From positions 1 to 46,201 of the forward strand of contig JAGVYS010000005.1 in the NCBI GenBank assembly GCA_018303125.1: a stretch of 46,201 nucleotides of DNA, given 5' to 3'. Position 1 is the stretch's first letter. The number at the start of each line of letters is the position of its first letter. The notes beneath the pieces were generated by a model, which was given only the letters and a program-made list of their open reading frames with translations, searched no databases and was not told the DNA's origin. This DNA is from Candidatus Woesearchaeota archaeon. GTDB taxonomy: Archaea; Nanobdellota; Nanobdellia; Woesearchaeales; WJIZ01. This document shows, in pieces, positions 10,009 through 37,670 of the stretch. Made by a program: the position numbers and the translations under genes.

Positions 10009-11256
10009 TTAACAATCTCTTCCAACCCTTAGCAAGGCAGCCTTCCTGTGGGCATCCAATCCTTCCTGCTCAGCCAGCCTTGAGGCTACCTTAACCATGC
10101 TGGCAGGAACTTTTCCATCAATCTTCTGGTACGTAACAATCTTGACAAAATCCCTGACAGATAACCCGCCAGTATACCTTGCAGCTCCGTTCGTAGGCAG
10201 GATGTGGTTTGTTCCGGTGCAATAGTCTCCGAAGACCTCTGCAGCATTATCTCCTATGAATAGTGAGCCATAATTTTTCAGCATAAGCCTCTCTGGATTT
10301 TTGACATGCAGCTCAAGGTGCTCAGGCGATTTCATGTCTGATATCTTAGCGCAGTCCTCAAGGCTCTGTGCTATTATGATTCTCCCGTTTTGCAGGGCTG
10401 CAGCTGCAATATCCCTTGTCTTAAGCTTCTGAAGCTGCATTTCCAGCTGATTTTGAACTTCAATTGCCAATTTTCTTGAGGTAGTCACTAAATTTGGCTG
10501 TGCCGACTTGTCATGCTCTGCCTGAGCAAGCAGGTCAGCAGCTATAAGCTCAGCCTTGCCCGTTTCATCTGCTATAATCAAAACCTCGCTTGGCCCCGCT
10601 ATGAAATCTATTCCAACCCTGCCATAAACTTCCTTCTTGGCTGCTGCAACATACTTGTTTCCGGGCCCGACTATCTTGTCAACTTTAGGTACTGATTCCG
10701 TACCGTATGCCATTGCGCCTATTGCCTGCGCTCCGCCAATATTGAATATCATATCCGCTCCCGCAATATCTGCAGCAGCAACTGTTGCAGGCTTTATCCT
10801 TGGTGAGCATACAATAATCTCTTCAACTCCTGCAATCTTGGCGGGAATTATGCTCATTAGAGCTGATGACGGCAATGGATATATACCTCCAGGCACATAG
10901 CACCCTACTCTGATCAATGGAATCACCTTCTGTCCCAAAATAACACCCTTATTGACCAAAGAAAAATCCTTTATCTGGCTCATCTGCTTCCTAGCGAAGA
11001 ATTCAATGCTTTTGGCAGCTTCTCGTAGGGCAGACAATGTTTCAGAATCAACTTTTTCGTATGCTGCGTTTATGTCTTTTCCTGTGAGCTTGAAAGGAGC
11101 AGTACCTATGTCATCGAATTTTTGAGAGTATTTCCTCAATGCGCTCTCTCCATATTTCCTTATATCAGCAAGAATCTCCCTTGCTATTTCTCCCTCATCC
11201 CCCTGCCTTGGCTCGAAAAATTCCCTGTCCAATTTATCAGCATTAACAATTATCAT
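10009..11256 (-). CDS. hisD: Histidinol dehydrogenase
   Basis: GCYVPGG, VDKIVGPGNKYV, DFIAGPSE, DLLAQAEHD, PEHLEL and GDYCTGTNHILPT. Confidence 0.96.
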   Translation of the reverse strand: MIIVNADKLDREFFEPRQGDEGEIAREILADIRKYGESALRKYSQKFDDIGTAPFKLTGKDINAAYEKVDSETLSALREAAKSIEFFARKQMSQIKDFSLVNKGVILGQKVIPLIRVGCYVPGGIYPLPSSALMSIIPAKIAGVEEIIVCSPRIKPATVAAADIAGADMIFNIGGAQAIGAMAYGTESVPKVDKIVGPGNKYVAAAKKEVYGRVGIDFIAGPSEVLIIADETGKAELIAADLLAQAEHDKSAQPNLVTTSRKLAIEVQNQLEMQLQKLKTRDIAAAALQNGRIIIAQSLEDCAKISDMKSPEHLELHVKNPERLMLKNYGSLFIGDNAAEVFGDYCTGTNHILPTNGAARYTGGLSVRDFVKIVTYQKIDGKVPASMVKVASRLAEQEGLDAHRKAALLRVGRDC

Positions 11257-12476
11257 TTTCTCCTTCCTCCGAGCTCATTCTTTATATCGTCCAAGGTTAT
11301 TCCTTTCTTTGCCATAAGGACAAGGATAAAATAAGCAAGGTCAGCTATTTCCCAGACAAGATTGTCCTTGTCTTTGTAATTTATAACTTCCATTGCCTCT
11401 TCCTTAATCTTGGCTTTTACAAGTTCCTCATCCTTTGCTATCAATGAGGTATAAGAGCCTCTTCTTGGATTCTTAATCCTGCCTGCTATAACGCTATACA
11501 ACTCTTCCATGCTGAAATCCCTTTCCCCAAAGCATGAATATTTTCCGGTGTGGCATGCAAAGTTTTTCTGGCTGACAGTGAACAGCAATACATCCCTGTC
11601 GCAGTCATACCTTGCCTTTTTCAGCACTTGGAAATTTCCTGATGTCTCACCCTTTACCCATATTTTCTTCCTGGACCTGCTATAGTAGGTTCCTTTTCCT
11701 GATTCAAGCGCCATGAGCAAAGATTTAGGATTGGAATAAGCAAGCATCATTACCTGACCGTTCTCTTCCTGCACTATGGTCGGAACAAGCCCATTGCTTT
11801 TCTTGAAATTAATCAATGAGACAAATGCTTTTCCCAGCTCAATCCTGCCTGTATAAAGCGCCATGCCAATCTGTGAATCACAGCCTAAATCCTCAAGCTG
11901 GGTTATATCATCAATTGTTGTTATCCCTCCTGCGACAGTCAGGTTTTTCTTCGTTGCCTTTCTTATTTTTTCAATTATGCCGAAATCAAGACCTTCCATC
12001 ATGCCTTCCTTGTTTACATTTGTGAATAAAAATCCTGAGCAATACCTCTCAAGCTCCTTTATTGCCTCAAAAGGTGTCTTCTTCGTTTTTTTAGTCCATC
12101 CTTCAGTTACCACATTGTCATCTTTACTGTCAATAGCAACAATTACCTTGCCGGCAGGAAGCTTCTTCAGGAATTCCGGAGAGGCTTTTGTACCTATGAT
12201 TATTTTTTTGGCGCCATATTTCAAAATCTCTTCTGCCTTATCTTGGCTCCTTATCCCACCTCCGACTCTGCAGTCTGCAATCTTGCATATTTCCTTTATT
12301 AGTCCAGAATTATTTCCCTTGCCTAAAGCTGCATCTAAGTCAATGACAGCAATTTCCCCATACCTGGAAAACTCCCTGGCAAACTGCATGACATTGCTGC
12401 GCTCAAGTACCTTTTCCCTTCCTTGCCTAAGCTGCACAGCCTTTCCATCCATTAGGTCAATGCTCGGTATTATCAT
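11253..12476 (-). CDS. hisAIE: HisA-HisI-HisE fusion (ProFAR isomerase / PR-AMP cyclohydrolase / PR-ATP pyrophosphatase)
   Basis: N-terminal [21 protein letters not shown] and VGGGIRS (HisA). [14 protein letters not shown] and [10 protein letters not shown] (HisI). [12 protein letters not shown] and EIADLAY (HisE). Confidence 0.92.
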
Positions 12477-13225
12477 TTTCTTACCTCAATTCCTTTTTTC
12501 CCAAGATATTCCTTTACGTTGAGTATAGAGTATGTGCTATAATGGAATATTGACGCTGCCAGTGCAGCATCTGCTTTTCCTTTTATGAAAACATCTGCAA
12601 AGCTTTCTAAATTACCCGCTCCGCCGGAAGCAATGACAGGTATACTGACATTCTCCGAGATTATCTGCGTAAGCTCAAGCTCATAGCCTTCTTTTGTCCC
12701 ATCTCTGTCCATGGATGTCAACAAGAGTTCCCCTGCACCGAGCTTCTCTGCTTCCTTAGCCCATTCAAGTGCGGAAATGCCTGTTGGCTCCTTTCCACTC
12801 TTTATGAAAACCTCATATCTCCCGTTTATTTTTTTGGCATCTATTGCAACTGTTATGCATTGGCTGCCAAATTTTTCAGAGGCTTCCCTCAAAAGGCTTG
12901 GATTTTTCACAGCAGCTGTGTTTATTGAAACCTTGTCTGCGCCTGCTATAAGCAAATTTCTTATGTCATCAATGGAGCTTATTCCCCCGCCTACTGTAAA
13001 AGGGATGAATATTTCCTTTGCAACCTCTTTTACAAGCGATGTGGTTTTCCTTTTTTCAGATGATGCAGTTATGTCAAGGAAAACAAGCTCATCGGCACCT
13101 TCCTCATTGTATCTCTTGGCTAATTCTACGGCATCGCCTGCCTGCTTAAGATCTAAAAAGTTCCTTCCTTTCACTACCTTCCCTTCCTTAACATCAAGGC
13201 AAGGTATTATCCTTTTAGTAAGCAT
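12473..13225 (-). CDS. hisF: Imidazole glycerol phosphate synthase cyclase subunit
   Basis: [35 protein letters not shown] and PVIASGGAG. Start at 13225 after GAGGTGG. Confidence 0.96.
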
Positions 13226-13799
13226 CAAGCCACCTCTGCAGCAGCGCAATGCCTGAACTACCACTTTTTTCAGGGTGGAATTGCACAGCTGTAACATTCT
13301 TATCCTGGATTGCGCATGCAAATTCTCCATAATAATCCGTGACTGCAGCTATTATGCCTTTTTGCCCTGGTTTTACATAATATGAATTGACGAAATAAAA
13401 AAAATCCTCCTCAAAAATTCCTTTTTTTGCAGGCGTTATGCTATTCCATCCTATCTGAGGCACTTTTCCTTTCCTGAACCTTACTGACTTGCCATTGTAT
13501 ATCCCGAGCCCTTTTACTCCGACACTTTCATCGCTTTCCTCAAAGAGCGCCTGCATGCCCAGGCATATTCCAAGGAAAGGCTTTCCAGAGGCAATTGAAT
13601 TCCTAATCGGCTCTGCAATGCCTTTCTCCCTCAGGTTCTGCATCATGAATCCAAATGCTCCTACTCCAGGTAGTACTATTCTTTCTGCATCAAGTATTGC
13701 ATCCGGGGTGCCAACTATCATAGACTCTGCTTTAAGGTAATCAAAAGCGTTCTTTACGCTGCTTAGGTTTCCTATTCCGCAATCCACTATGGCTATCAT
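13215..13799 (-). CDS. hisH: Imidazole glycerol phosphate synthase glutaminase subunit
   Basis: [21 protein letters not shown] and QFHPEKS. Confidence 0.95.
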
Positions 13800-14383
13800 A
13801 TCATTCCTTTTGTGCTTGGCACATCCTCCATTGCCCTCTTATCAGTTGAGCATGCCATCTTGGCTGCCTTCCCGAATGCCTTGAATATTGCCTCTATCTT
13901 GTGGTGGTCGCTTCTGCCATATAGCATCCTGACAACAACATTTGCCCCTAGGCCTATGGAAAATCCATAGAAAAAATCCTCAAGAACATCAGTGTCGAAA
14001 TCGCCGCAATATCTTCTGCCAAATTTTGCATCGTACTGTAGGTATGGCCTGCCGCCTATGTCTAGGGCTACAACTGCCAAAGACTCATCCATCGGGTAAA
14101 TAAAATATCCTGTCCTGTTTATCCCTTTCTTGTCTCCAAGCGCTTTCCCGAGTGCCTGGCCCAATACAATCCCTGTATCCTCTATAGTGTGATGCTGGTC
14201 GACTTTTAAATCTCCTCTCACTTTGATTTCAGTGTCAAACAATGAAAATTTTGAGAAGCTTTCAAGCATGTGCGAGAAAAATCCTATCTCAGTATCAACA
14301 GAGTATTTTCCCTTGCCATCAATATTAAGCTCAACGCTTATTCTTGTTTCTTTAGTTTCCCTGCTTATTTTGGCTTTCCTCAT
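13796..14383 (-). CDS. hisB: Imidazoleglycerol-phosphate dehydratase
   Basis: RETKETRI, DQHHTIEDTG, PMDES, DHHKIEAIFKA and PSTKG. Confidence 0.96.
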   Translation of the reverse strand: MRKAKISRETKETRISVELNIDGKGKYSVDTEIGFFSHMLESFSKFSLFDTEIKVRGDLKVDQHHTIEDTGIVLGQALGKALGDKKGINRTGYFIYPMDESLAVVALDIGGRPYLQYDAKFGRRYCGDFDTDVLEDFFYGFSIGLGANVVVRMLYGRSDHHKIEAIFKAFGKAAKMACSTDKRAMEDVPSTKGMI

Positions 14384-16698
14384 TTTAGCACCTCTGGTAT
14401 CTGGTTTATATCAGAAATAACCTTTATTGCACCGTTCTTGACAAGCAATTCTTTTAGAGATTTGGAATTTGTGTCTGAAGGAATTACTCCTATGGCCTTT
14501 ATCCCTGCACTCTTCGCAGCCTTCATGTCATCAACACTGTCCCCAATATAAACAGCATTGCTCCTGCCAATTCTATCCAGTGCCATGCTTATGCTGCATG
14601 GGTCTGGCTTTGATTTATTTTCAGGATAATCTTCCATCGCTATTATTGTATCAAAGTACTGCTCCATGCCAAATTTCTCAAGTATATATCGGGCCTCCTC
14701 TCTTGGCCTACCTGTAACTATGCCAAGTCTTGCTTCCTTATATAAGCTTTCAAGAACTTCTTTTGTCAGCAAGAATCTCTCATTATCTATAAGCCCCTTG
14801 TCTTCATTATCTCCCAGATAGAACTCCTGGAACTTCCTGATTATATCATCCTTGCTGCATTTGACATTCCTCTTGAGGATTACTGCTTCCGTAAGGTCCC
14901 AGTCATTATTGTAGCCACCTTTTTCCTTGAACTCCTGTATCTCTTCACGGCTTATCTCTACATTCGCAAAAAATTTGGCAGTCCTTTGTATGGCTGTCCT
15001 GTAGGAATTGCTGACATCTACCAAAACACCGTCCATATCGAACAATACCACATCCTCGGGAATTATATTCTTTATGGCTTCTATAAGCACCCTGGATTGT
15101 TCCATTGTCCCTATTCCTATCCTTATGCAATTCTTCAGCAATGGGTACGTTGACCTGTCCCTTACAAGTATGCCCCTCTCCCTGAGCTGCAGCAAAACAT
15201 AATTGCACCTCTCACCGAAATCTGCCATCATAAAATTGGCTTCGGAAGAAAATACCTTTATGCCGAGCTTTTCAAGCTCTTTCTGCACATACTGCCTGCT
15301 CTCCCTGACCTCTTCGACATAATTACTTATGAATTCCTCATCCTTCATTGCGGCGCTGGCCGCAATAAGCGCAAGGTTATTTACGCTATAAGGTGAGATG
15401 ACCTTTTCTAGATTGGTTATTATTGCCTCGCTTGATATTATGCATCCAAGTCTTAATCCTGCAAGGCCGAAAGCCTTTGAGAATGTCTGCGTAACTATTA
15501 GGTTGCTGTATTTCTCAACAAACCGCTTGCAGCTCTTTCCATAATACTGGCTATATGCCTCATCGACAAGCACTATTGCGTCCTTTGCCTTTTCCAGTAC
15601 AGATATAATGTCTTGCTCGCTTATGGTTGTGCCTGTAGGATTATTCGGGTTGACAAGAACAACAAGCTTCGTTTTATCAGTTATTTTTTCCAGCAATTTT
15701 TGAGTTGGAAAGCTCAGGTCATCATTATAAAGAACATTAGTAATGTTTGCCTCTACTATGTCTGCATAGACTTTGAACATTGTAAATGTGGGCTCAGGAA
15801 TTATTACTTCATCCCCTTTCTCGAGGAAAGTGTCCATGACAACCTTTATTGCTTCGTCCGTTCCATTTGTAGGCAATACATTCTTGCTCCCAGTATCCAA
15901 ATACAATGCAAGTTCCTTCCTGAAATTACCATAATCGGGGTACATGCAAATGTCCTCGACAGAAATATCCCTTAGTGCATCCAGCACTTTTGGTGAGCAT
16001 CCAGAGGTATTTTCATTAAAATCAAGGCGCAGCTTGCCTCTCCTGTCAGAGGTTGGCGGCTCGTACTTGCTCATTTTCTGCACTGCCTCCTTCGGCATTA
16101 TGGAATTTCCAGAAGAATCAGCGCCTATTACGAGGAAATCGCTCTGCATTATTACATCGTACGCTTTTAGATTATACTTTATTAGAGAGCTTCCTGTATA
16201 GACTATATCGATTATTAAGTCAGCTATTCCTTCGCTGCAGCTTGTCTCAACGCAACCATTGATGTAAATCTTCTTGAATGAGAAGCCTTTCCTCTCAAGG
16301 AAATTAAGGTATTTTTTGGCCAATTTCTTGTATTTGGAGGCTATGCACACTGTCAAATCTCTTGGCATTGTTTCAAGGCTTTTTCCTTCTGGCCCTATTA
16401 GGCAGAGTGTTGGCTTGCCATAGATGGCAGAAGGGTCATCCCACGCAATTCTCTTGATTACCTTAAGTTGAGATTCCTTGTTTTCGAGGCAGTATTCCCT
16501 GAACAAGTCTTCTCCAGTTAGGCCAAAGGCATTCTTGCCTTTATTGAGAAATTGCTTTACTAGGAATGGTATGTCCTCTCCCCTTGCTTCTATAAGCCTT
16601 GTGTCCTTTACATCCTTAAAATAAGATAATGCCGATTCCCTATAACTTCTTAGCCCGGAATTTTTTGGAACCAAGATGAATACAACCACCACTTTCAA
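14380..16698 (-). CDS. hisG-hisC: Triple fusion: short-form ATP phosphoribosyltransferase (HisG) + histidinol-phosphate aminotransferase (HisC) + HAD-family (histidinol-)phosphatase; start uncertain
   Basis: HisG: ILVPK, RGEDIP, GLTGEDL, ASKY, ADLIIDIVYTG. HisC: LDFNEN, NPNNPTG, DEAY, TFSKAFGLAGLRLG. HAD: FDMDGVLVD, KSKPDP, YIGDSVDD. The frame has no ATG start (only TTG 16698, GTG 16692/16689), with TGA at 16713-16711. Confidence 0.9.
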   Translation of the reverse strand: MKVVVVFILVPKNSGLRSYRESALSYFKDVKDTRLIEARGEDIPFLVKQFLNKGKNAFGLTGEDLFREYCLENKESQLKVIKRIAWDDPSAIYGKPTLCLIGPEGKSLETMPRDLTVCIASKYKKLAKKYLNFLERKGFSFKKIYINGCVETSCSEGIADLIIDIVYTGSSLIKYNLKAYDVIMQSDFLVIGADSSGNSIMPKEAVQKMSKYEPPTSDRRGKLRLDFNENTSGCSPKVLDALRDISVEDICMYPDYGNFRKELALYLDTGSKNVLPTNGTDEAIKVVMDTFLEKGDEVIIPEPTFTMFKVYADIVEANITNVLYNDDLSFPTQKLLEKITDKTKLVVLVNPNNPTGTTISEQDIISVLEKAKDAIVLVDEAYSQYYGKSCKRFVEKYSNLIVTQTFSKAFGLAGLRLGCIISSEAIITNLEKVISPYSVNNLALIAASAAMKDEEFISNYVEEVRESRQYVQKELEKLGIKVFSSEANFMMADFGERCNYVLLQLRERGILVRDRSTYPLLKNCIRIGIGTMEQSRVLIEAIKNIIPEDVVLFDMDGVLVDVSNSYRTAIQRTAKFFANVEISREEIQEFKEKGGYNNDWDLTEAVILKRNVKCSKDDIIRKFQEFYLGDNEDKGLIDNERFLLTKEVLESLYKEARLGIVTGRPREEARYILEKFGMEQYFDTIIAMEDYPENKSKPDPCSISMALDRIGRSNAVYIGDSVDDMKAAKSAGIKAIGVIPSDTNSKSLKELLVKNGAIKVISDINQIPEVLK

Positions 16699-16714
16699 TA
16701 ATTTTTTCCATCAT
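16640..16714 (-). CDS. 24-codon upstream ORF (MMEKIIESGGCIHLGSKKFRAKKL) overlapping the hisG start in a different frame
   Basis: ATGATG preceded by SD GAGGT (16722-16718). Spacing to the second ATG matches hisB and hisF. One His codon (CAT 16678-16676). Confidence 0.45.
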   Translation of the reverse strand: MMEKIIESGGCIHLGSKKFRAKKL

Positions 16715-16743
16715 AGGACCTCTATAGAGTTTATCTTGAAAAG

Positions 16744-16815
16744 AGAGATAGAGGGGAATTGAACCCCTGCCATAGGTGCCACAGACCTATATTCTGCCGT
16801 TAAACTACTATCTCT
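16744..16815 (-). tRNA. tRNA-His(GUG), atypical acceptor end (A-1/U73), no encoded CCA
   Basis: Cloverleaf: acceptor GAGATAG/CTATCTC, D arm GTTT-AACGGCA-GAAT, anticodon arm TAGGT-CTGTGGC-ACCTA, T arm AGGGG-TTCAATT-CCCCT. Confidence 0.85.
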
Positions 16816-16943
16816 ATCTGTGAGCCTGAAAAAATTATTAAATGATTTAAGAATAGTTCTACCTATAATGAATACAACCAGCGCTTACTACTGCCTTAGC
16901 CTCTGTGATAACTAATTTCATAGCATTATGGTAATGGTGAGGG

Positions 16944-17822
16944 TTATTTAAAGCTTTCTATGGCCTCAGCAAACAATCCGGCTACATCAATCTTCGCTGC
17001 AGGATTAGGTATGGAATTTGTGGTCACTACCTCTGCACCTGTTTTCTTCAGCTTTCCTAGAGCCCCTTCAGCAAAAATACCGTGAATTGCTATGCATGTT
17101 ACCTTTCTGACGCCAAGTGCCTTGAGCTTAATGATAGTTTTAATCAGCGTATTCCCTGTTGAAATCATGTCATCTATAAGCACTATATTCTTTCCCTTGG
17201 TGTCTACTTTTTCCTGGAACCTCACATCAACATTCCTGGCAGAATGCCTTGTCTTAAGTAAAATAGTGGATTCACATCCTATTATTTCTGCAGTTTTTCT
17301 TGCCCATTTATACGATTCCCAGTCAGGTCCTACTATAAGTGGCTTCTTGACATTTTTCCTTATATGTTCCCCTATCAATGGGTTTGCCGTTAGCCTTTTT
17401 GATTCAACTGAAAATATATGCCCCAGAGATTTCTCCCTGTGAAGATGCGGGTCAAGTATGCATACCCTGTCAACTATGTTATTCATTATCTTGCCGAGGA
17501 AATGGATTGAAGGTATTTCGCCTTTGCTGAACCATGTATCCTGCCTGAAATAAGGGAAATAAGGAGACAGCAAAGTAATTTCTGAGGCGCCCATCTCCTT
17601 CGCTGCCTTTGAGGCAAACATTACCTCTAAAAGGCAAGAGTCAATATCACCATAGAAAGACTGGACAAGATACACTTTCCTGCCCTTCAAGCCAGTCTTC
17701 AGAAATTTTATATGGAGCTCATTGTCGGGAAATTTCTCAACAAAAAGCTCAGAATATGGCATCTTTGCTTTGGCTGCTATTCTGCGCGCAATATGTTTTC
17801 CGTGTGAGCAGGATATAATCAT
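16944..17822 (-). CDS. prs: Ribose-phosphate pyrophosphokinase
   Basis: KFPDNE, PYFPYFRQD, LDPHLH, VGPDWES, VLIDDMISTGNT and TTNSIP. Confidence 0.93.
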   Translation of the reverse strand: MIISCSHGKHIARRIAAKAKMPYSELFVEKFPDNELHIKFLKTGLKGRKVYLVQSFYGDIDSCLLEVMFASKAAKEMGASEITLLSPYFPYFRQDTWFSKGEIPSIHFLGKIMNNIVDRVCILDPHLHREKSLGHIFSVESKRLTANPLIGEHIRKNVKKPLIVGPDWESYKWARKTAEIIGCESTILLKTRHSARNVDVRFQEKVDTKGKNIVLIDDMISTGNTLIKTIIKLKALGVRKVTCIAIHGIFAEGALGKLKKTGAEVVTTNSIPNPAAKIDVAGLFAEAIESFK

Positions 17823-19101: not shown

Positions 19102-19719
19102 TTATCTATTCAAAAGAAATTCTAGTGAATATTGCTTACCGTACTGACTTTCTGCTAGGGTAATCACGGTTCCTTCCCGCAATATAACCATTCCAACATT
19201 GTTATATCTGTTAAGCCACTTATCTCTTAGAGAGTTTACTATAGGATCCATACTAGGATTTAGATTGGTACCTGGATTTAGATTTGCATCAGGCCTTGTA
19301 TGGGCTATACCGATTTTTCTCCCGTTCATGTACGTCCCGTTCACACTTCCTGCATCAAGCAAATTAAATTCCTTGCCGACAACACCTGCCGCCTTTGCAT
19401 CGCAGCACAACACCGCATGAACATCGGATATGTAGGGATTAGCTATCGTGATGCTCACTATTCCTCCCGCACTGTCACGGAAAACATCATAGCCCTCTAA
19501 AAAATTTTTGCGGAGGAAACTTCTATAGTTGTCCTCTGTAATCTGCTCTCGGCCTATGGCAATAACTTGCCGAGGAACCATTTCTTCCAGAAAAATGTCT
19601 ACTTTACCTTTTAAGAGGTTCTGCCCGATTAGGTTATAGGCTCCTCTTGCTCTCATTGCCACTGGACTATTCTTTCCGCTTGATGCTCCTGCTCCCGTTA
19701 ATGTATATTCATGCGCCAT
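19102..19719 (-). CDS. FHA domain protein
   Basis: Conserved FHA residues IGR, ISDVHA and DAGSVNGTYMNG. SD GGTGA upstream. Confidence 0.8.
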   Translation of the reverse strand: MAHEYTLTGAGASSGKNSPVAMRARGAYNLIGQNLLKGKVDIFLEEMVPRQVIAIGREQITEDNYRSFLRKNFLEGYDVFRDSAGGIVSITIANPYISDVHAVLCCDAKAAGVVGKEFNLLDAGSVNGTYMNGRKIGIAHTRPDANLNPGTNLNPSMDPIVNSLRDKWLNRYNNVGMVILREGTVITLAESQYGKQYSLEFLLNR

Positions 19720-19842
19720 TTTTTATCACCAACAAAAGAAATGAAGAGTTAAGTATAAACTTTTTTATTAAACTATATATTTTAGTATAAATAGAATATA
19801 CTTTTAGAAAAGTTTAAATATTAATAAGAATTTCAGTTATTT

Positions 19843-20778
19843 ATGAACAGAAAACTTGTGAGACAGGGGACCAGTACCCTGATGATTAGCCTTCCTGCGG
19901 CCTGGATAAAGCATTTTCACCTGACTAAAGGGTGCGAAGTGGATGTAAACTGGTATGGAAATGATTTGTCAATAAGTGCAAAAGGCATAAAGGAGAAGAA
20001 GGAGTATCACCTTAAACTTGAGTCAAATTTAGATTCTGTAATACGCACACTCATTTCGAATCCTTACAGGGAAGGGTATGATATAATTCATATAACCTTT
20101 GACAGCGAATCACAATATGCCCTGCTTCAAAAAACTTTATCAACACGTCTTATAGGATTTGAAATTATAAAAAGAGAAAAAAATCACTGCATTGTTGAAA
20201 ATGTGACAGAGCCTTCTGGGGATCAGTTTGACAATATTCTCAGGAAGCAGTTTCTGACAATTCGTGAGGGTATAGGGCTCGTTAGGAACAGGCTTGAAGG
20301 CAAGAAAGATTTCAATTTTGATGATGCTATTGAAGAGATTGCGGCGAGGACCCACAAATATGATAATTTCTGCCGCCGCTCACTTATAAAGCAACAGACA
20401 AAAAATCACCCTGAAATGCTATGGGCATTTTTGTCACATATTCAGCACGGATTTCGCGAGATATACTTTCTCAACAGCATAATAAAGGATAAGGCAGATG
20501 AGCGGGTGCTCATGCTATGCAATGATGCGTTAAAGACAATTAGCCTTATTGAGGAGATGTACTTCGAAAGAAAGGTGGAAAACATGATTGAATTACACAA
20601 AATAGAACGCTCCTTGTTACATGATAAAGTAGTGCAACTCCTTACCTCTAATTCTCAGGGAGCGTATGTTCATTTCCTTTTGAATTCCATAAGGACATTT
20701 TATCTCGCCAATAGCCCTATTTTTGGGTATCTGATTAGCGCCCAACAATCCTTTGGACCATCTGGTAAGTGGAAATAG
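19843..20778 (+). CDS. AbrB-PhoU archaeal phosphate-uptake-regulator-like protein
   Basis: N-terminal RKLVRQGTSTLMISLPAAW (AbrB/MazE), YREGYDIIHI, IGFEII and a helical PhoU-like C-terminus. Confidence 0.8.
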   Translation: MNRKLVRQGTSTLMISLPAAWIKHFHLTKGCEVDVNWYGNDLSISAKGIKEKKEYHLKLESNLDSVIRTLISNPYREGYDIIHITFDSESQYALLQKTLSTRLIGFEIIKREKNHCIVENVTEPSGDQFDNILRKQFLTIREGIGLVRNRLEGKKDFNFDDAIEEIAARTHKYDNFCRRSLIKQQTKNHPEMLWAFLSHIQHGFREIYFLNSIIKDKADERVLMLCNDALKTISLIEEMYFERKVENMIELHKIERSLLHDKVVQLLTSNSQGAYVHFLLNSIRTFYLANSPIFGYLISAQQSFGPSGKWK

Positions 20779-22225
20779 GAGGCTTATACGTCCCGGAGCT
20801 GTTTGTGTCTGCCGATGAGGGCATACATTTTGCCATCCATCCTATGGCTGCTATATGCAACAGCGATACATTTGTTTCGCCTATGCGCATAACTTGACTA
20901 GAGAGTTCGGATCGCAGCCCCTCATCTCTCTCAGCAGAAGTAAACAAGTATGCCAGGTCATCTACAGATATTCCTCTTTTCGCCAAAAATGGCGCAGCCT
21001 GCGTAAAATACTGCAACTGAGGCTGGAATAAATTTCCTGCATGCAACAAAAATGCAGCCTTGGCAGGAGTCATTCCTGATTCTGCGTCAGATACTCCGCT
21101 AATGATTTCACTTGCCGACGTATTTGCAATGGTCCTGAGATATGGCCTTAGTCCGGCAATATGTCGGTTGTATTGCTGAATTAGGTTATATTCCTCTCTT
21201 TGAGAGGTTGAGTGACTGTTATGAAAATATCCGCCAACTAAAATTGAGAAGCTCAGAGCAACTGTTAATAGTTTTGGGTTATTTATTGCTTTCTCATAAC
21301 CTGGCACAGCAATAGAACCAATAAGGTCGCTACAGCCATCACTGAAATTCCTATATCTCTTTTCTGTATCAAGAGTTGTAAGGCGCTCTATTACTGCCCG
21401 AGATTTACGTAACCGTGAAGGGATTCTATCCAAAGCCTGGCCAATATACTTTGCGTGGTTTTCTGTCAATGACCCTTCAATAGAAATCTGCCTTCCGTTA
21501 ACCTTGACAATGCCGTTTTCATAGGGATGGTAGGTAATCCAATGGCACCCTGTCAGCATAAACAATACTGTTTTTCCAAGTGCATATAACTCGCTTTGGT
21601 CGGAATACTGGGTTGGATTGGCTGTGAATGTGGCAAAGAGTAATGGGTCTGTCACCTTATCGCTCCCGCCTATAGTAGCTACCTCCTTTTTAGCATCCTC
21701 TTTCGTTATAAGATAACCAAAATCAGTAAGCCATAATTTAGATAGGTTATTGCTAACTATTACGTTTCCTGGCTTTATATCCCTATGAAATAGCTCATTT
21801 TCATTCAGATGGCTAACAGCATCAACCAGTTGTGGAATAAGGGATCGTGCCTGAGGGACAGTTAGCCCAGAATTCGAAATTCTGCTTTCTAATGATTGCC
21901 CTTCCACGAAATCATAAATTGGATAGATATTACCGTCAGCATTAACGAAATCATAAAGTCTTGTGAGATTGTGCTCTTGAGGAGATGGAACTTCATTAAA
22001 AACATGAAGAGTCTCTCTGTCGGTGGTATAATGCCATCTTCTCGCATGTCTGGCTGTTTGACTGGATATTTCGCCATCAGGTACATCTATTTTTGTGACA
22101 AACTCCTGTGCACCCCTTTTCAGCCTTAAAACTACGCTATTGGCTCCTTCGGCATAGTATTTTATATAAGTATATTTAGCAGATAGTTCCCTTTCCGCAT
22201 TCAGTATCAGTCCATCTATGTCCAT
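20735..22225 (-). CDS. Hanks-type Ser/Thr protein kinase with a transmembrane helix and extracellular C-terminal domain
   Basis: AEGANSVV loop, VTKI lysine, HRDIKPGNV, TDFG, SELYALG and TM LLTVALSFSILVGGYF. Confidence 0.85.
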   Translation of the reverse strand: MDIDGLILNAERELSAKYTYIKYYAEGANSVVLRLKRGAQEFVTKIDVPDGEISSQTARHARRWHYTTDRETLHVFNEVPSPQEHNLTRLYDFVNADGNIYPIYDFVEGQSLESRISNSGLTVPQARSLIPQLVDAVSHLNENELFHRDIKPGNVIVSNNLSKLWLTDFGYLITKEDAKKEVATIGGSDKVTDPLLFATFTANPTQYSDQSELYALGKTVLFMLTGCHWITYHPYENGIVKVNGRQISIEGSLTENHAKYIGQALDRIPSRLRKSRAVIERLTTLDTEKRYRNFSDGCSDLIGSIAVPGYEKAINNPKLLTVALSFSILVGGYFHNSHSTSQREEYNLIQQYNRHIAGLRPYLRTIANTSASEIISGVSDAESGMTPAKAAFLLHAGNLFQPQLQYFTQAAPFLAKRGISVDDLAYLFTSAERDEGLRSELSSQVMRIGETNVSLLHIAAIGWMAKCMPSSADTNSSGTYKPPISTYQMVQRIVGR

Positions 22226-31245: not shown

Positions 31246-32022
31246 ATGCTAAACAAAGCTATAGTTGTTAAGGAGGAAAATATCACTGCGTTAAAGTCAG
31301 CTCTAGTAAGGCAGCTCAATAAGAAAGGCATGACGCAGGAGAAGATTTCATCTGCTCTTGGCATTTCACAGCCAATGGTCAGCAAATACCTGTCGCAGAA
31401 AAATATTTATTCTAATCTTAGTGATTTGGCCGAAAGGATATGCAAGATGGGCTCCATACATTGCTCATATGTTTTTACACCTGCTGAGATTGTAGAAGGG
31501 AAAGATTACTTCATATCCCCTCGGGATTCAATGATTACAGAAGAGAAGTCAGATGTGCTAAACAGCATACATAAGGCAATAAAGCTTATGGAAGGCCATG
31601 ACCTTTCAGCTATTTCCCCTAAAGTAAAGATGAATATCGCCTCTGCTACAAATGGGGCTGTCGGGAAGAACGACATAGCTTCAATACCATCTGGGCTGGT
31701 CATAGCAGACAACAGGCTGAGGACATATCTACAAGCCGAGTTTGGGGCAAGCCATCATCTCTCAGGCATACTGTTGTATGCGATGAAGATTAATAACAAT
31801 ATAAGGTCAGTTGTCAACATAAAGTACAATAATCAAATATTAAAAATCGCAAAGGAGAAAAAAATTTCCTGCCTTTTTCTTAACAATGACTATGGGATGA
31901 TAGGAAAGGAAAGAAAATTTGACATCCTTATACATAAGGGCTCATTCGGCCTTGAGCCTGCTTCATATGTTTTTGGCAGTACGCCAGAGGAGGCTGTGAA
32001 AAAATGCATGATGCTGGCATGA
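31246..32022 (+). CDS. thiR: ThiR-type regulator (HTH + ThiN thiamine-phosphate-synthase-like domain)
   Basis: HTH GMTQEKISSALGISQPMVSKYL. ThiN-like PKVKMNIA, EFGASHHLS, VVNIKYN and HKGSFGLEP..YVFG. Heads the thi operon. Confidence 0.8.
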   Translation: MLNKAIVVKEENITALKSALVRQLNKKGMTQEKISSALGISQPMVSKYLSQKNIYSNLSDLAERICKMGSIHCSYVFTPAEIVEGKDYFISPRDSMITEEKSDVLNSIHKAIKLMEGHDLSAISPKVKMNIASATNGAVGKNDIASIPSGLVIADNRLRTYLQAEFGASHHLSGILLYAMKINNNIRSVVNIKYNNQILKIAKEKKISCLFLNNDYGMIGKERKFDILIHKGSFGLEPASYVFGSTPEEAVKKCMMLA

Positions 32023-32966
32023 GATATTCAAGGCAGGAATTGGTTATAGGAAAGGATGCCCAGAAAAAAATAGAGTCATCATCAGCAGTAGTGATAGGCC
32101 TCGGGGCACTCGGAACAGTAACATCAGAATTGCTTGTAATGGCAGGAATAGGCACATTGAAAATAATAGACAGAGACAGGGTAGAGGAATCAAACCTGCA
32201 AAGACAGTCGATTTATTCAGAGCAAGACATAGGTCAGCCGAAGGCTGAGGTTGCAATGAAAAAGCTAAAAGGCATAAATTCGAAAATTGTTATTGCTTCC
32301 GGGATAGCTGACCTGGACCATGGCAATATTCATGAGATGCTTGAAGGGAATGATATCATTCTGGACTGCACTGACAACCTGTACGCAAGGTTTCTCATAA
32401 ACGACTATTCCAGAAAAAGCTCAATTCCCTGGGTTTATGCAGGTGCGATAAGGGAAAACGGGAATGTCATGGCTATAACGAAAGATACTCCATGCTTCAG
32501 GTGCATAGTCGAGGAGGTAGAGGATTTTGAGACATGCGACACTGTCGGTGTGACAGCTGCTGTTTGCCATGTTATAGCATCAATTCAGTCAGACATTGCA
32601 TTAAGAGTGATTACGGGCACGTTCAAAAAACAGGAGCTCATAAGCCTGGGGATGAACAGCTTAAGGCTTACAAAATCATTGACATCACGAAGCAAAAAAT
32701 GCCCTGCATGCAATGGCAGCTATGAATATCTCTCAGGTGAAAAGGAAAAAAACTCCACTAAATATTGTTCAGGGATATTTGTATTCAGGATGGTCAATTT
32801 AAACATTGAAAGCATATCCAAGAGGCTTATTAAATTGGGTGGGCATTCATCAGATAAATGCATATTTTTCGATAACGTTACAATTTTCCCTGACGGGAAA
32901 GTTATGGTCAAGGCAGAGAGCATTGAAGATGCAAAATCAGAAATATCAAGGTATATTGGAATGTGA
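32019..32966 (+). CDS. thiF: ThiF/MoeB-family adenylyltransferase
   Basis: RYSRQ, IGLGALG, DRDRVEESNLQRQ, DCTDN, PCFRC, TCDTVGV and CPAC. Start 32019 overlaps the thiR stop. Confidence 0.88.
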   Translation: MRYSRQELVIGKDAQKKIESSSAVVIGLGALGTVTSELLVMAGIGTLKIIDRDRVEESNLQRQSIYSEQDIGQPKAEVAMKKLKGINSKIVIASGIADLDHGNIHEMLEGNDIILDCTDNLYARFLINDYSRKSSIPWVYAGAIRENGNVMAITKDTPCFRCIVEEVEDFETCDTVGVTAAVCHVIASIQSDIALRVITGTFKKQELISLGMNSLRLTKSLTSRSKKCPACNGSYEYLSGEKEKNSTKYCSGIFVFRMVNLNIESISKRLIKLGGHSSDKCIFFDNVTIFPDGKVMVKAESIEDAKSEISRYIGM

Positions 32967-34002
32967 TGTCGCTGTCATAGGCGGCGGATGCATAGGCCTT
33001 TCAATAGCTGCAGCCATTTCAAAAAAAGGCATGAAAGTTGTAATTGTTGAAAAAGGCAAAGTGGGCAATGAGGCAAGCTGGGCTTCTGGCGGGATGCTTA
33101 AGCCTCTAACAGAGAGTACAGGAGACGAGAAATTCCTGAAGCTGTGCATGGATTCTTTAGCGTTATATCCTAGATTCATAAAAAGCCTTGAAGAGGAAAC
33201 ATCAATGGACGTTGAGATGGACACATCAGGTGGCATTGTTGTTGCAATGAGTGATAAGGAAATGGAAAACATTGAGAAGAAGCATGCCTTTGCAGCAGCT
33301 CATGGCGTAGATACAAAAGTTCTTTCAAAGCATGCCCTTGCTAAGCTTGAGCCGGGAATTGTAAAGAAAGCCTTTGGCGGCCTACTAGTGCCTACGGATT
33401 TCCAGCTAAACAACAGGAAGCTTTGCAAAGCCCTTGAAAAATCATGCATCATGAATGGTGTCCTCATTCTTGAAGAGGAAGAAGCAAAAGAAATCATAGA
33501 AGAAAATAGCAATGTCATAGGCATGTTGACAAAAAAAAGGCGCATAAAATCATCGATTGTTGTAAACTGTGCAGGGGCATGGTCATCTAAAATAAATCCT
33601 GAGATAAAAGTGAAGCCTATAAGGGGCCAGATGATAAGGCTTGATGCATCATCTATTGATATTCCGGGCCATATAATTACAAGGCATCCGTTCTATATTA
33701 TACCCAGAAAAGACAGAAGCATAATAGTTGGCTCAACAGTAGAGGACGTTGGATTTTGCAAGGATGTAACTGAAGATGGAACGAAATCGCTGAGAAATGA
33801 AGCATGTTCATTAGTCCCGTCCCTTGAGTCTTGCAGTGTGATAGAGACATGGGCAGGGCTCAGGCCAATGGCTGACTTCCCTTACATTGGCAAGCTGAAA
33901 AGAAGTATGTATGCTGCAACAGGCCATTACAGGAATGGCATACTCCTTACACCAATAACAGCAAAAATGATTTCAGAAGAGATTGAAGGTGAGCTGAAAT
34001 GA
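32929..34002 (+). CDS. thiO: Glycine oxidase
   Basis: VIGGGCIG FAD motif, ASWASGGML, PIRGQM, WAGLRP and GHYRNGILLTP. Start uncertain (32929 ATG or 32956 TTG). Confidence 0.9.
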   Translation: MQNQKYQGILECDVAVIGGGCIGLSIAAAISKKGMKVVIVEKGKVGNEASWASGGMLKPLTESTGDEKFLKLCMDSLALYPRFIKSLEEETSMDVEMDTSGGIVVAMSDKEMENIEKKHAFAAAHGVDTKVLSKHALAKLEPGIVKKAFGGLLVPTDFQLNNRKLCKALEKSCIMNGVLILEEEEAKEIIEENSNVIGMLTKKRRIKSSIVVNCAGAWSSKINPEIKVKPIRGQMIRLDASSIDIPGHIITRHPFYIIPRKDRSIIVGSTVEDVGFCKDVTEDGTKSLRNEACSLVPSLESCSVIETWAGLRPMADFPYIGKLKRSMYAATGHYRNGILLTPITAKMISEEIEGELK

Positions 34003-34196
34003 TTCTAAAGGTGAATGGCTCAGAAGTAAATCTTGGTGTGAGGAATATTCCGGGATTGCTCAAGCATTATGGGATTAAGAAAGGCTCTGTGGTGATTGAG
34101 ATTAATGGAATCATAATTAAGAAGGAAGAGTATGCATCATTTGCTCTAAAGGAAAATGATTCCATTGAAATCATAACAATAGCAGGAGGGGGTTGA
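33999..34196 (+). CDS. thiS: Sulfur carrier protein ThiS
   Basis: 65-aa beta-grasp protein: [21 protein letters not shown]-terminal AGGG. Confidence 0.92.
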
Positions 34197-34197
34197 A

Positions 34198-34962
34198 ATG
34201 GTGTTGAAAATAGGGAAGTATACTTTGAAATCAAGGATGATAGTAGGTACAGGTAAGTACGAGACTTTCGATATAATGCAAAAGGCATTGGAAGCCTCAG
34301 GAAGTGACTGCATAACAGTCGCAATAAGGCGCGTTAACTTAAGCGAGCCTGATAAGAACATGCTGAATTTTATTGACAGGAATATGTACATCTTGCTGCC
34401 TAACACAGCAGGTTGCTTTACTGCAGAGGAGGCAATTAGGACAGCAAGGCTGGCAAGGGAGGCATGTTCAACAGACATGATAAAAGTAGAAGTGATAGGC
34501 GACAAGAAAACGCTGCTTCCTGACGTGGAAGAGACACTAAGGGCAACTAAGGTTCTTGTTGACGAAGGTTTTACCGTGCTTCCATATACAAATGATGATG
34601 TTGTCATGGCAGCAAAGCTGGAAAAGGCTGGTGCAGCTGCAGTAATGCCGCTCGGCTCCCAGATCGGCTCAGGGCAGGGGATAATAAACAGTACAAACAT
34701 ATCACTTATTCTTGAGCAGGCTAATGTGCCTATTATAGTTGATGCAGGTGTTGGTACTGCATCTGATGTCTCTGTTGCCTTTGAGCTTGGCGCTGACGGT
34801 GTGCTGCTTAACTCAGCAATAGCACTTGCCAAAGACCCTGTCAAAATGGCAAATGCCATGAGGCTTGCTGCAGAATCAGGCAGGCTTGCCTTTGAAGCAG
34901 GAAGGATACCGAAGAAATTGTATGCAACAGCATCCTCCCCAACTGAGGGCATTTCAAAATGA
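34198..34962 (+). CDS. thiG: Thiazole synthase
   Basis: [49 protein letters not shown] and ASSPTEG. Confidence 0.97.
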
Positions 34963-35573
34963 TTGACTATTCTCTCTACATTGTCACAGAATCCGGATTG
35001 TCAAACAACAGGCCAAATGAGAAAATAGTAAGAGAGGCAATAAGAGGAGGAGCTGGAATAGTGCAGCTCAGGGAGAAGAAATGGCCAAAGGAAAAATATT
35101 TTGCAGAAGCCATGAAGATATCAGGAATATGCAGGGAGAATAATGTGAGATTTGTTGTTAATGACTACCCTGATATAGCTATGAAGGTAAAGGCAGATGC
35201 ACTCCATCTTGGCCAGGATGACATGAGCCTGAAAGAGGCAAGGAAAATTGTCGGAAAAATGAAGATAGGCAAATCAACGCATTCATTGCAGCAGGCAGAA
35301 GCTGCTATAAAGGAAGGCGCAGACTACATAAGTATAGGGCCTGTATTTCCAACGAGAGAGAAGCCAAATCCGGTGGGGACAGAAACTGTTGGCAAAGTTG
35401 CAAGGCTTAATTTTCCATTTGTGGCTATAGGTGGCATAAAACTGCACAATCTTGATTCATTGCTTGATGCCGGGGCAAAGACAATAGCCGTCATATCAGG
35501 GATAGTGAGTTCTGAAAATATTTATGAAACAACAAAAAAATACGTTGAAATGATAAGAGGTAGAGAAAAATGA
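34959..35573 (+). CDS. thiE: Thiamine-phosphate synthase
   Basis: VQLREK, VVNDYPD, HLGQDD, GKSTHS, GPVFPT and VAIGGI. Confidence 0.95.
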
Positions 35574-37054
35574 TGCAGGAAGGATTGATTTTGATTATTG
35601 TAACAGCATTAATATCAGCTGCCATAGGCCTATGGTATTCTAGAAGGAGAAAAATAACTGTGGAAGGATTCATTACTGCAAGGAGTTCTCTGCCGCTTGG
35701 AATTTCTATACTCAACTTAGTTGCCACAGGAATGGGCGCATGGATACTCTTTTCACCTGCAGAAACAGGGGTGGTTGCAGGAGTAACAGCTCTTATAGGG
35801 TACAGCCTTGGAAGCTCAGGAGCGCTCTTCGCTTTTATTTTTGTCGGCTCACGATTGAGAAAGATTATGCCAAATGGCCACACATTGACAGAATTCATAC
35901 TGGCGCGATTTGGAAATCCCATGTACCTCATTATCCTAGGGGTTATGTTCTTCTACATGGCGCTTTTCCTTACAGCAGAGCTTACTGCTATAGCCCTTGC
36001 ATCGCAGATGGTCTTCGGCATACCGCTATGGATTACTTCATTGATAGTAACAATAGCCACAGTCGCCTACACTGCCCATGGAGGCTTCAGGGCGACTGTT
36101 TTCACTGACATGCTGCAAGGCATATTAATTCTTCCATTGCTTGCCTCTGCCTTCATAGGCAGCCATATTTTCCTGGGTAGTGCTTCAACAATCATAAACA
36201 GCTTGCCATCCTCATTGCTCAACTTGACATCTCGAGCAGGAATAGAGTATGGCATAACTCTCATACTTGCCATAGTAGGTGCCGAACTTTTCAACCAGGC
36301 AAACTGGCAAAGGGTTTACGCGCCAAAAAATGTTTCTATAATGAGAAAGGCATTCTTCATTGCAGGCCTTATAATAATCCCGGTAATACTCATGGCAGGC
36401 ACTTTCGGGCTTTTTGCTGTCGCTACCGGAGTAGCAGAAGTGCCATCTGTTGCCCTCTTCACATTCCTGCTGGAGATAACTCCTAGATGGATAATAACTA
36501 TAGTAATGGTCCTTGCAGTCATTCTTGTGATGAGCACTATCTCTGCATTGCTAAACGGAATGGTAAGCCTTTTCACTGTTGACCTTGTAAGGATAAGGCC
36601 TAATATGACGCAGAGAAAGCTGCTGTCAATAGGGAAAGTTCTAACTATAATAATAGCGCTTCTCGCATTCCTTATTGCAAAGCAGGGCTACAGCGTGCTT
36701 TATCTTTTCCTTATCGCAGACCTTGTTTGCGTGGCTGCTGCGTTCCCTACTGTCTTTGGCATGTTTGCAAAAAGATATTCAGGCATTGCAGCAAGCACCT
36801 CAGCTATAGTTGGAATAATAGCTGGCTCCTATTTCTTCCCAGACAGCACTTTCGCAGGAAATTTCTGGCACTCTGCATTTTTCATTTATCCGCAATTCTC
36901 CTCTGTTTTCCCTGCATGGGGCAATCTTCTGGTTTCATTTGCTGTTGCCCTGCTTGTTCCTGTGGCCTTATCACTTTTATCGATGGCATTCACGAAAAGC
37001 TTTGACTTCAGGAAAATAGGAAGAAAAGGGGTGAAGCTGAGTGCCAAGGATTAG
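35570..37054 (+). CDS. Sodium:solute symporter family transporter (probable thiamine-precursor uptake)
   Basis: About 13 TM helices. GAWILFSPAE, TLTEFILARFG, YTAHGGFRATVFTDMLQ and QANWQRVYA motifs. Lies in the thi operon. Confidence 0.85.
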   Translation: MMQEGLILIIVTALISAAIGLWYSRRRKITVEGFITARSSLPLGISILNLVATGMGAWILFSPAETGVVAGVTALIGYSLGSSGALFAFIFVGSRLRKIMPNGHTLTEFILARFGNPMYLIILGVMFFYMALFLTAELTAIALASQMVFGIPLWITSLIVTIATVAYTAHGGFRATVFTDMLQGILILPLLASAFIGSHIFLGSASTIINSLPSSLLNLTSRAGIEYGITLILAIVGAELFNQANWQRVYAPKNVSIMRKAFFIAGLIIIPVILMAGTFGLFAVATGVAEVPSVALFTFLLEITPRWIITIVMVLAVILVMSTISALLNGMVSLFTVDLVRIRPNMTQRKLLSIGKVLTIIIALLAFLIAKQGYSVLYLFLIADLVCVAAAFPTVFGMFAKRYSGIAASTSAIVGIIAGSYFFPDSTFAGNFWHSAFFIYPQFSSVFPAWGNLLVSFAVALLVPVALSLLSMAFTKSFDFRKIGRKGVKLSAKD

Positions 37055-37670
37055 CGAAAGGCTTTGGAATGAAAACATAGAATATGCGGAAAAATGCCTA
37101 AGCCATCCGTTCGTGAGGGGCATTGCTGACGGCACACTTAAAGAAAGGCATTTCAAAACATACATCGCACAGGATGTATTTTATCTTCAGGCATTTCTAA
37201 GGAGCTATGCATTTGCTATGTCCAAATCAGATGAGATAGGCGTGACAAAAGAGCTCCATGCCTTAATAGGAGGCATTCTGGAGGAAATAAAGCTCCATGA
37301 ATCTTACAGCAGCAAGCTTGGCATAAGCCTTACTGGCATAAAGCCCATCAAGGAGTGCTCTGCATACACTACTTTTCTTTTGGATAAGGCAGCAAATTCT
37401 GGCATAGGCGAGACTATGGCTGCTATGGCGCCTTGCGTAGTCCTCTATCATTTCCTTGGCAGGGAGCTTGAAAAGATAAAAAATCCATCAACACAATACA
37501 ATGAATGGATAATGACATATTCAGGGAATGAAATGGCCAGACTTGCAGAAAAAATTCAGCTTCTTCTCGACAAAAATGCCCCTGACACACAGGAAGTGCA
37601 CGATACATACAAAAATGCTATGAGGCATGAGCTGGATTTTTTCTCCGGGCCGCTCAGGGAAAATGGATAG
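37041..37670 (+). CDS. tenA: TenA thiaminase II / aminopyrimidine aminohydrolase
   Basis: HPFVRGIADGTL, YIAQDVFYL, catalytic APCVVLY, YNEWIMTY and ELDFF. Confidence 0.9.
   Translation: MPRISERLWNENIEYAEKCLSHPFVRGIADGTLKERHFKTYIAQDVFYLQAFLRSYAFAMSKSDEIGVTKELHALIGGILEEIKLHESYSSKLGISLTGIKPIKECSAYTTFLLDKAANSGIGETMAAMAPCVVLYHFLGRELEKIKNPSTQYNEWIMTYSGNEMARLAEKIQLLLDKNAPDTQEVHDTYKNAMRHELDFFSGPLRENG

Follow-up and report, generated by a model that had tools for sequence, protein, structure and literature searches.

A 46,201-nucleotide (nt) stretch of a Candidatus Woesearchaeota archaeon genome (GenBank assembly GCA_018303125.1, contig JAGVYS010000005.1), referred to here as the window, carries on its minus strand a genuine gene for tRNA-His with the anticodon GUG, placed between prs and a hisG fusion gene and on the same strand as the complete his operon. 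The tRNA gene is flanked by two leader open reading frames (ORFs), each with a single His codon within a shared 13-mer, and a frame that lacks a start codon crosses the tRNA between them. From these frames and motifs and from their conservation in relatives we infer, as a reasonably probable reading, that the his leader senses charged tRNA-His by two-step +1 frameshifting and that the tRNA lies inside a conditionally translated stretch. The features concerned, in the order of transcription of the minus strand, are as follows.

16944..17822, minus strand: prs (ribose-phosphate pyrophosphokinase), the gene upstream (Pfam Pribosyltran_N, Pribosyltran).
16945..16952, minus strand: TATA box TTTAAATA, the proposed promoter P1, overlapping the prs stop codon; its 3' end lies 24 nt before the leader 1 ATG.
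16859..16921, minus strand: leader 1, an ORF translated as MKLVITEAKAVVSAGCIHYR up to its stop; homologous mini-ORFs are present in relatives.
16868..16880, minus strand: site 1, the 13-mer TGGTTGTATTCAT, with UGU at 16876-16874, AUU at 16873-16871 and CAU (His) at 16870-16868.
16711..16872, minus strand: +1-frame ORF of 53 codons and UGA, translated as FIIGRTILKSFNNFFRLTDRDSSLTAEYRSVAPMAGVQFPSISLFKINSIEVL (translation and start-codon check).
16835..16842, minus strand: second TATA-like tract TTTAATAA, at -28 to -21 from G1, read from the sequence.
16744..16815, minus strand: tRNA-His(GUG) including A-1 (ARAGORN; Rfam, 64.3 bits); CCA is not encoded.
16738..16743, minus strand: 3' trailer C-UUUU-C, a weak oligo-U tract, read from the sequence.
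16640..16714, minus strand: leader 2, an ORF translated as MMEKIIESGGCIHLGSKKFRAKKL up to its stop, in frame -1 relative to hisG, with GAGGU at 16718-16722.
16676..16690, minus strand: site 2, with the Shine-Dalgarno (SD)-like GGUGGU at 16690-16685, UGU at 16684-16682, AUU at 16681-16679 and CAU (His) at 16678-16676.
14380..16698, minus strand: fusion of short hisG, hisC and a HAD phosphatase gene, 772 amino acids (Pfam HisG, Aminotran_1_2, HAD_2).
10009..14383, minus strand: hisB, hisH, hisF, a hisA-hisIE fusion and hisD (Pfam).

A genome-wide search found the 13-mer TGGTTGTATTCAT at exactly two places, each of them on the minus strand of the window (16868-16880 and 16676-16688; 0.08 expected). 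The His codon of leader 1 is codon 18, three codons before the end of that ORF, and that of leader 2 is codon 13 if the first ATG is taken as the start and codon 12 if the second is. At site 2 the hisG frame reads UUC (16680-16678) and then AUC, and hisG lies +1 to the leader 2 frame opened by ATG 16714. The hisG fusion has an in-frame TTG at 16698, and we propose 16680 as the point of trans-frame entry. The +1 frame of leader 1 contains no ATG, GTG or TTG ahead of the tRNA, crosses the whole tRNA in the only stop-free register and ends at a UGA (16713-16711) that overlaps both ATGs of leader 2. A preliminary description of this DNA had overlooked the two leader ORFs with their His codons, the +1 relation of hisG and the open frame across the tRNA; it named no strand, and it gave the distance to the leader ATG correctly, but missed that ATG 16714 is out of frame with hisG.

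The arrangement resembles a programmed +1 site in several respects. A well-initiated zero-frame ORF with an early stop is followed by a gene in the +1 frame, and an SD-like stimulator lies ∼3 nt upstream of site 2 (that of site 1 is weak). The 16S rRNA 3' end reads GGATCACCTCCT, and the SD-like window of site 2 (-7.5 kcal/mol) ranks in the top 1% among the windows of the same gene. A +1 slip at NUU-C would turn the wobble pair G-U into G-C. Moreover, the predicted trans-frame N termini (..SDC-I/IVVP.., with the slash at the frame change) agree with those of single-frame homologues (..DC-TVIL-P..) in their length and in having an aliphatic residue at that position.

Homologues of hisG occurred in 34 of 401 genomes sampled from the order, and this set was extended with 51 loci from public genome contigs and 76 from metagenome contigs. 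Removal of identical loci left 57 + 34 = 91 non-identical DPANN hisG loci. In 61 of these, which we call shift-type, the HisG N terminus carries Phe-Ile/Thr. The Phe codon at this junction was TTC in 61/61; for comparison, TTC was used at 97 of 282 positions elsewhere in the same genes and at 5 of 32 for the invariant SDF Phe. In the leader frame the junction reads CAT or CAC (His) in all 61, and the change from Ile to Thr in HisG preserves this His. The base before TTC was A in 43 loci, C in 16, G in 2 and T in none, giving AUU, CUU or GUU, so that all 61 junctions have the form NUU-CAY(His). A leader ATG in the -1 frame was present in 53/61, mostly behind GGAGG. Only 4/61 had an in-frame hisG ATG up to 60 nt upstream, compared with 22 of 30 ordinary hisG genes (up to 72 nt), and 14/61 had no in-frame ATG, GTG or TTG at all. 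The SD-like element (GGUGAU/GGUGGU) 3 nt upstream was among the best 10% of windows of its own gene in 27/38 loci. A stop codon lies immediately before TTC in one locus (L111) and the leader stops three codons after CAT in another (L086), which confines any shift to at most 6 codons around the His codon. Slippage during transcription of the A6 run in leader 2 was rejected as an explanation, since this run is not conserved.

Upstream of the tRNA, ORFs resembling leader 1 were present in 34/42 loci. In 13 loci the +1 frame of leader 1 crosses the tRNA (53-138 codons); 10 of these crossing frames end on or next to the following start (ATGA, TGATG, TTGA, ATGnTAA), and the other 3 enter leader 2. 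In the same 13 loci, the TATA box precedes the leader 1 ATG by 22-24 nt (31 nt in two), and the zero-frame stop follows 2-5 codons past the His codon. Among the long leaders, only L061 fails to cross the tRNA. Some of the crossing loci have an ordinary ATG for hisG. We also considered whether the 13-mer marks a wider "His regulon" and rejected this: three of the six places with one mismatch were checked, and all lay within ordinary ORFs.

Two further leader architectures were seen. In L107, L062, L102 and ∼17 similar loci, leader 1 is short (MKRVDCIH/MKRVGCLH) and its +1 frame forms a conserved ORF of 34 codons that ends with ..IHHH, followed by a conserved TTCTTGCATTGT upstream of an intron-bearing tRNA-His; this ORF with its His run may be a third layer of control. 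Eight his loci (L085, L092, L093, L094, L128, L198, L223 and L238) have no tRNA. Here a TATA box precedes a leaderless leader (MNPTFFPLK..LH), the +1 frame of which is open up to a second ..C[IL]H site at hisG, suggestive of a two-step cascade.

In the mechanism that we propose, transcription from the TATA box overlapping the prs stop would yield an mRNA that opens with leader 1 and is probably leaderless, its start being placed at the ATG from the TATA spacing. If charged tRNA-His were ample, ribosomes would finish leader 1 three codons after the His codon, the tRNA would fold and be excised by RNase P and RNase Z, and few ribosomes would reach hisG. If it were scarce, CAY would presumably be decoded slowly, and a ribosome waiting at CAU with tRNA-Ile on AUU would slip +1 to UUC. 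The slipped ribosome would translate the start-less 53-codon frame through the tRNA sequence as far as the UGA overlapping the leader 2 AUG and restart there, only to meet an identical AUU-CAU, where a second +1 slip would be needed to enter hisG. We regard +1 frameshifting at the AUU-CAU sites as likely. Competition between translation and tRNA excision is put forward more tentatively. The tRNA itself might then be the switch, whereby the same primary transcript would end up as a tRNA-His precursor or as his mRNA, a suggestion that we make with some doubt: excision by RNase P and RNase Z would sever the message when charged tRNA-His is ample, and shifted ribosomes would keep the tRNA unfolded and uncut and pass by the stop-start overlap to the second checkpoint and hisG. 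Such ribosome-gated "tRNA-excision attenuation" would give a squared response to histidine shortage.

That the tRNA gene is a real one follows from its structure and its kin. ARAGORN called tRNA-His(gtg) as the sole tRNA in the window (16743-16814, minus strand). The Rfam family RF00005 matched 16744-16814(-) over model positions 1-71 of 71 with 64.3 bits (gathering score, 29); it was the only family to reach its gathering score anywhere in the window, and the gene ranks 9th among 35 genome-wide matches to this model. Read on the minus strand, the order is A-1 (16815), the acceptor GAGAUAG/CUAUCUC, U73 (16744), C and UUUU; pairing is complete in all four stems, and the GUG anticodon lies in the 7-nt loop CUGUGGC. 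The preliminary description was accurate on the full cloverleaf with its GUG anticodon and coordinates, on the A-1 to U73 pairing, on the distance of about 30 nt to the leader ATG (the next ATG, 16714, lies 30 nt past U73) and on the TATA-like tracts upstream (TTTAATAA and TTTAAATA). No such tract is suitably placed in the 29-nt spacer to that ATG. Tract TTTAATAA is a possible promoter of the tRNA's own; its placement is not conserved among relatives, in which the tRNA trailers range from no T run up to T5. The idea of a leaderless tRNA, with a 5' end set by the promoter as in Nanoarchaeum equitans, was dropped because the TATA positions before the tRNAs of relatives vary and RNase P RNA is present in the genome.

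Canonical tRNA-His identity nucleotides are absent from this gene, which has A instead of an encoded G-1 (16815) and U instead of the C73 discriminator (16744). As predicted from the sequence, A-1 and U73 are able to pair, and this end would keep the extra base pair of an 8-bp acceptor helix. Compared to the nearest relatives, three acceptor pairs, including -1:73, are altered with pairing preserved. We surveyed the -1:73 pair in 79 distinct tRNA-His(GUG) genes, taken from all fetched loci and including the window; two (L013, L023) come from genomes flagged as unpublished, and their omission changes nothing. G-1:C73 was found in 75 (74 by script, and L228 after a manual check), A-1:U73 in two (the window gene and L166, a non-operon copy of genome G322) and G-1:U73 in one (L164, genome G107), and one gene was disrupted (L184). 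G-1 is encoded in 76/79, namely the 75 and L164, and beyond the window U73 occurs only in L166 and L164. The acceptor of L166 is GC-rich; L164 lies 2 kb from hisS. Acceptor G+C is 6 of 14 in the window tRNA and ranges from 4 to 14 of 14 in relatives. The acceptor sequence had been given correctly in the preliminary description, but its AU-richness is thus not exceptional; the true oddity is the A-1:U73 pair.

Some operon-linked copies in relatives are imperfect: those of L160/L117 (G276) pair at 5/7 acceptor positions, L184 has a disrupted 3' half, and L039 (G002) has an A-C mismatch in the T stem. The leaders around these copies are intact. In L005 (G032), 1445-1478 is a partial direct copy of a tRNA-His 3' end, ∼60 nt 3' of the gene, and resembles the attachment-site scar of an integrated element.

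The genome with the window (G000; 1.35 Mb, 54 contigs, 94.67% complete, 41% G+C, with intron-bearing archaeal tRNAs) was searched for another tRNA-His by ARAGORN with and without introns, the Rfam tRNA model at E<=1, a T-loop pattern scan, our model R1 and blastn with the type-B tRNA-His of the family. None was found, in an assembly that also lacks 16S rRNA and tRNA-Asp, tRNA-Cys and tRNA-Trp; the T-loop scan recovered Tyr, Phe and Lys tRNA genes. Two of these, tRNA-Tyr (contig C23, ∼1776-1925) and tRNA-Phe (C17, 8388-8494), have long introns and were missed or miscalled by ARAGORN, and the tRNA-Tyr intron carries TGATGA-like box motifs. Thg1 or Thg1-like proteins (PF04446) gave no match in the 94.67%-complete assembly; a control search recovered the family in Methanosarcina.

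Only one match to the histidyl-tRNA synthetase (HisRS) family was found in the genome. This HisRS is of the type that we term alpha, with the motif 2 FRDGPIKLGRLREF, and lies on another contig.

Contig C27, locus L001, 1480-2757: hisS, the alpha-type HisRS gene replaced in situ, beside native guaA.

This HisRS shares 43-51% identity with its counterparts in ten genomes from other families of the order, but no more than 31-36% with the "beta" type (WRYERPQKGR.REF) that its own family carries. The adjoining guaA is 72-73% identical to guaA of the family, the guaA-hisS synteny is kept, and DUF655 on the window contig is 73-77% identical to family members. Given a native guaA, kept synteny and a native window contig, the HisRS gene is, on these comparisons, a xenologous replacement in situ, and the same observations led us to reject mis-binning of the window and hisS contigs. 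The alpha motif-2 loop lacks the Gln that reads C73 in Escherichia coli HisRS, and its alignment revealed no substitution specific to this genome. Alpha is the type found beside such tRNAs, and G322 and G107, the hosts of L166 and L164, both carry it. In N. equitans, changing G-1 to A costs HisRS ∼2-fold and C73 to A <2-fold (PMC10100707). The A-1:U73 tRNA-His is probably chargeable by the unusual HisRS of this genome. Of the earlier proposal that a real tRNA-His with rewired identity needs a co-evolved HisRS or Thg1, the rewired identity and the unusual HisRS hold; Thg1 was not found, and no genome-specific change was seen in the motif-2 loop. In several relatives hisS lies beside or a few kb from the his operon or tRNA-His (G164 C6, G380 C8, G329 C5, G026 C43), and in G329 its frame is open for 598 amino acids, with an N-terminal extension.

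Alternatively, the operon tRNA could be a relaxed extra copy that drifted to A-1:U73, with a canonical tRNA-His, possibly split or intron rich, absent from the assembly. We consider this possible but rather unlikely; it would be compatible with the leader frameshift mechanism. Ten of the 15 genomes with an operon-linked copy do hold a second tRNA-His, the G276 operon copy pairs at only 5/7 acceptor positions, and the G002 copy has a T-stem mismatch. As the RNA gene set of the assembly is incomplete and the tRNA-His of N. equitans is a split gene (preprint 10.64898/2026.05.13.725050), a second copy may be missing from it. Against this, the stems of the window tRNA are perfect and its three changed acceptor pairs still pair, no type-B tRNA-His was found by ARAGORN, Rfam, R1 or blastn, the HisRS that replaced the original one in situ is of the type that accompanies such tRNAs, and the non-operon tRNA-His of G322 is likewise A-1:U73.

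Linkage of tRNA-His to his genes recurs in relatives and is not chance, in agreement with the preliminary description. A tRNA-His on the same strand was found up to 450 nt upstream of hisG in 29/57 + 15/34 = 44/91 loci, and no tRNA of another species was seen within this distance in the 91 loci. Spacers between tRNA and coding sequence measure 7-30 nt in several loci. In this genome 20/38 tRNAs have a same-strand ORF up to 200 nt downstream; adjacency alone is therefore common, and the conserved part is the pairing of His with his. Within family f1, hisG co-occurs with a type-A tRNA-His in G000, G002 and G005, of which G005 shares the order prs-tRNA-hisG, and G001, G003 and G004 have only type-B tRNA-His, with hisG not found. 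In a quick, weakly supported HisG tree G000 groups with G273 and G125, not with G005, and the tRNA-leader-hisG module looks mobile among DPANN archaea.

Several observations weigh against the frameshift reading. The in-frame TTG (16698) and GTG codons before the junction would permit conventional initiation; an NTG lies 21 nt before the Pro codon in ∼47/61 loci (site strings, by eye), and is ATG in L186. tRNA-Ile on UUC would have a U-U mismatch at the first position, and the SD-like element of site 1, GCUGGU, is weak. In ∼20 short-leader loci the +1 ORF stops before the tRNA, and 8/42 loci have no leader 1. With a TATA-like tract and a U4 run on its flanks, the tRNA may be an independent transcription unit. 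A search of sequencing runs listed no RNA run containing this stretch. Furthermore, these are related loci, and support in the HisG tree is weak. Finally, a 2021 review (PMC8211752) records, in the part available, no +1 frameshift in an archaeal cellular gene; the only archaeal cellular frameshift given there is a -1 event, in fucA1.

Some of these points would fit ordinary synteny, in which a housekeeping tRNA-His merely neighbors the operon, hisG starts at TTG or GTG, and the small ORFs are untranslated or plain stall sensors. In-frame TTG and GTG in the window, the NTG at -21, the frequent closeness of tRNAs and ORFs in a compact genome and a module that may be inherited or transferred as a block all speak for it. 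We nevertheless find it improbable, as it leaves unexplained the TTC and His in 61/61 at synonymous sites, the 14 loci without an in-frame start codon, the strong SD before an out-of-frame ATG, the start-less ORFs that cross the tRNA to meet the next start or leader 2 in 13 loci, and an exact 13-mer on both sides of the tRNA. Moreover, stalling at the His codon would place a ribosome over the TTG/GTG start and yield less HisG in starvation, which is the wrong direction. Least probable is a cis-acting tRNA mimic, an operator to which HisRS or a processing enzyme would bind in the manner of E. coli thrS, which the preliminary description had also offered: its place in the leader, its unusual identity nucleotides and a short-form HisG, for which the single HisRS-family gene leaves no HisZ (no paralogue was found), would suit it, but the cloverleaf is complete and high scoring, relatives carry canonical G-1:C73 tRNAs as its orthologues in the corresponding position, 30 nt separate it from the nearest start codon, it does not overlap a ribosome-binding site, and no other tRNA-His was found in the assembly.

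The proposed leader has partial counterparts in known systems. With RF2 (prfB; general points in PMC5009743 and PMC8211752) it shares a short zero-frame ORF with an early stop and an SD-like element lying 3 nt upstream. As in RF2, the NUU codon in the P site could re-pair after moving by one base, the A-site codon would be decoded slowly, and the frameshift would itself be the sensor. Unlike in RF2, the A-site codon is a sense His codon instead of UGA, so that charged tRNA-His and not release factor would be sensed; the host is an archaeon, two sites stand in series, and a tRNA gene lies within the shifted frame. It also resembles Ty1 (CUU-AGG-C) and "hungry codon" frameshifting, as it is termed in PMC8211752 and PMC5009743, in that a P-site tRNA would slip +1 while a sense codon awaits a scarce aminoacyl-tRNA, and the Ty1-like CUU is used in 16/61 loci. 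In contrast to Ty1, with its constitutively rare tRNA, a physiological shortage would serve here to control the cognate pathway.

Like the enterobacterial hisL attenuator (RF00514), the window has a leader ORF before hisG that would gauge charged tRNA-His via His codons. Unlike hisL, each leader has a single His codon and no tandem run, no terminator or antiterminator hairpin was detected (tRNA plus leader folds no better than shuffles, z = -0.53), and Rfam gave no T-box or His_leader match, either in the window at gathering or in 16500-17000 at E<=1, where the tRNA model alone matched; the signal would be read out as a frame change with translational coupling. As in tRNA-mRNA cotranscripts (E. 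coli tufB, mitochondrial punctuation, MALAT1-mascRNA), a tRNA is predicted to be excised from a longer coding transcript, but here it is cognate to the pathway and inside an ORF apparently translated only after a frameshift. Alphaproteobacterial tRNA-His without G-1 (PMC3064791) and N. equitans HisRS (PMC10100707) likewise depart from G-1:C73 with a motif-2 loop independent of the C73-reading Gln; unlike in those cases, the -1 nucleotide and its pairing are kept here. No report of U73 in tRNA-His was found in the literature searched. The mycobacterial polycysteine attenuators (bioRxiv 10.1101/834739) are also leaderless short ORFs forming the first cistron, on which the ribosome senses an amino acid, but they are bacterial, with tandem Cys codons, no frame change and no tRNA gene.

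The available parts of PMC8211752 and PMC5009743 contain no mention of hisG or of a histidine-sensing frameshift, and a literature search, supplements excepted, returned no paper on a frameshift in hisG or on a tRNA-His within the his leader of an archaeon.

Other genes of the window are noted for completeness. The HisA-HisIE fusion (11253-12476, minus strand, 407 amino acids) is unusual, as is HisG-HisC-HAD; long fusions similar to the latter also occur in G125 and G070. An FHA-domain protein adjoins a Ser/Thr protein kinase (19102-22225), and 31246-39341 holds a thiamine cluster with ThiN, ThiF, a DAO/ThiO-like protein, ThiE, TenA, a ThiL-like protein, ThiD and a sodium:solute symporter.

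To our knowledge, control of an amino-acid operon by leader peptides or recoding has not been established in Archaea. Two leader ORFs with a shared 13-mer flanking a tRNA would be new here, and the way of sensing an amino acid would be undescribed. If the frameshift reading is true, this would be the first programmed +1 frameshift in an archaeal cellular gene, the first hungry sense codon to serve as a sensor of its cognate biosynthetic pathway, and the first tRNA gene within a conditionally translated frame. The A-1:U73 tRNA-His, together with the in situ replacement of HisRS, offers a natural experiment on the rewiring of the near-universal G-1:C73 rule, and the his leader would show how the few biosynthetic pathways retained in tiny DPANN genomes are regulated.

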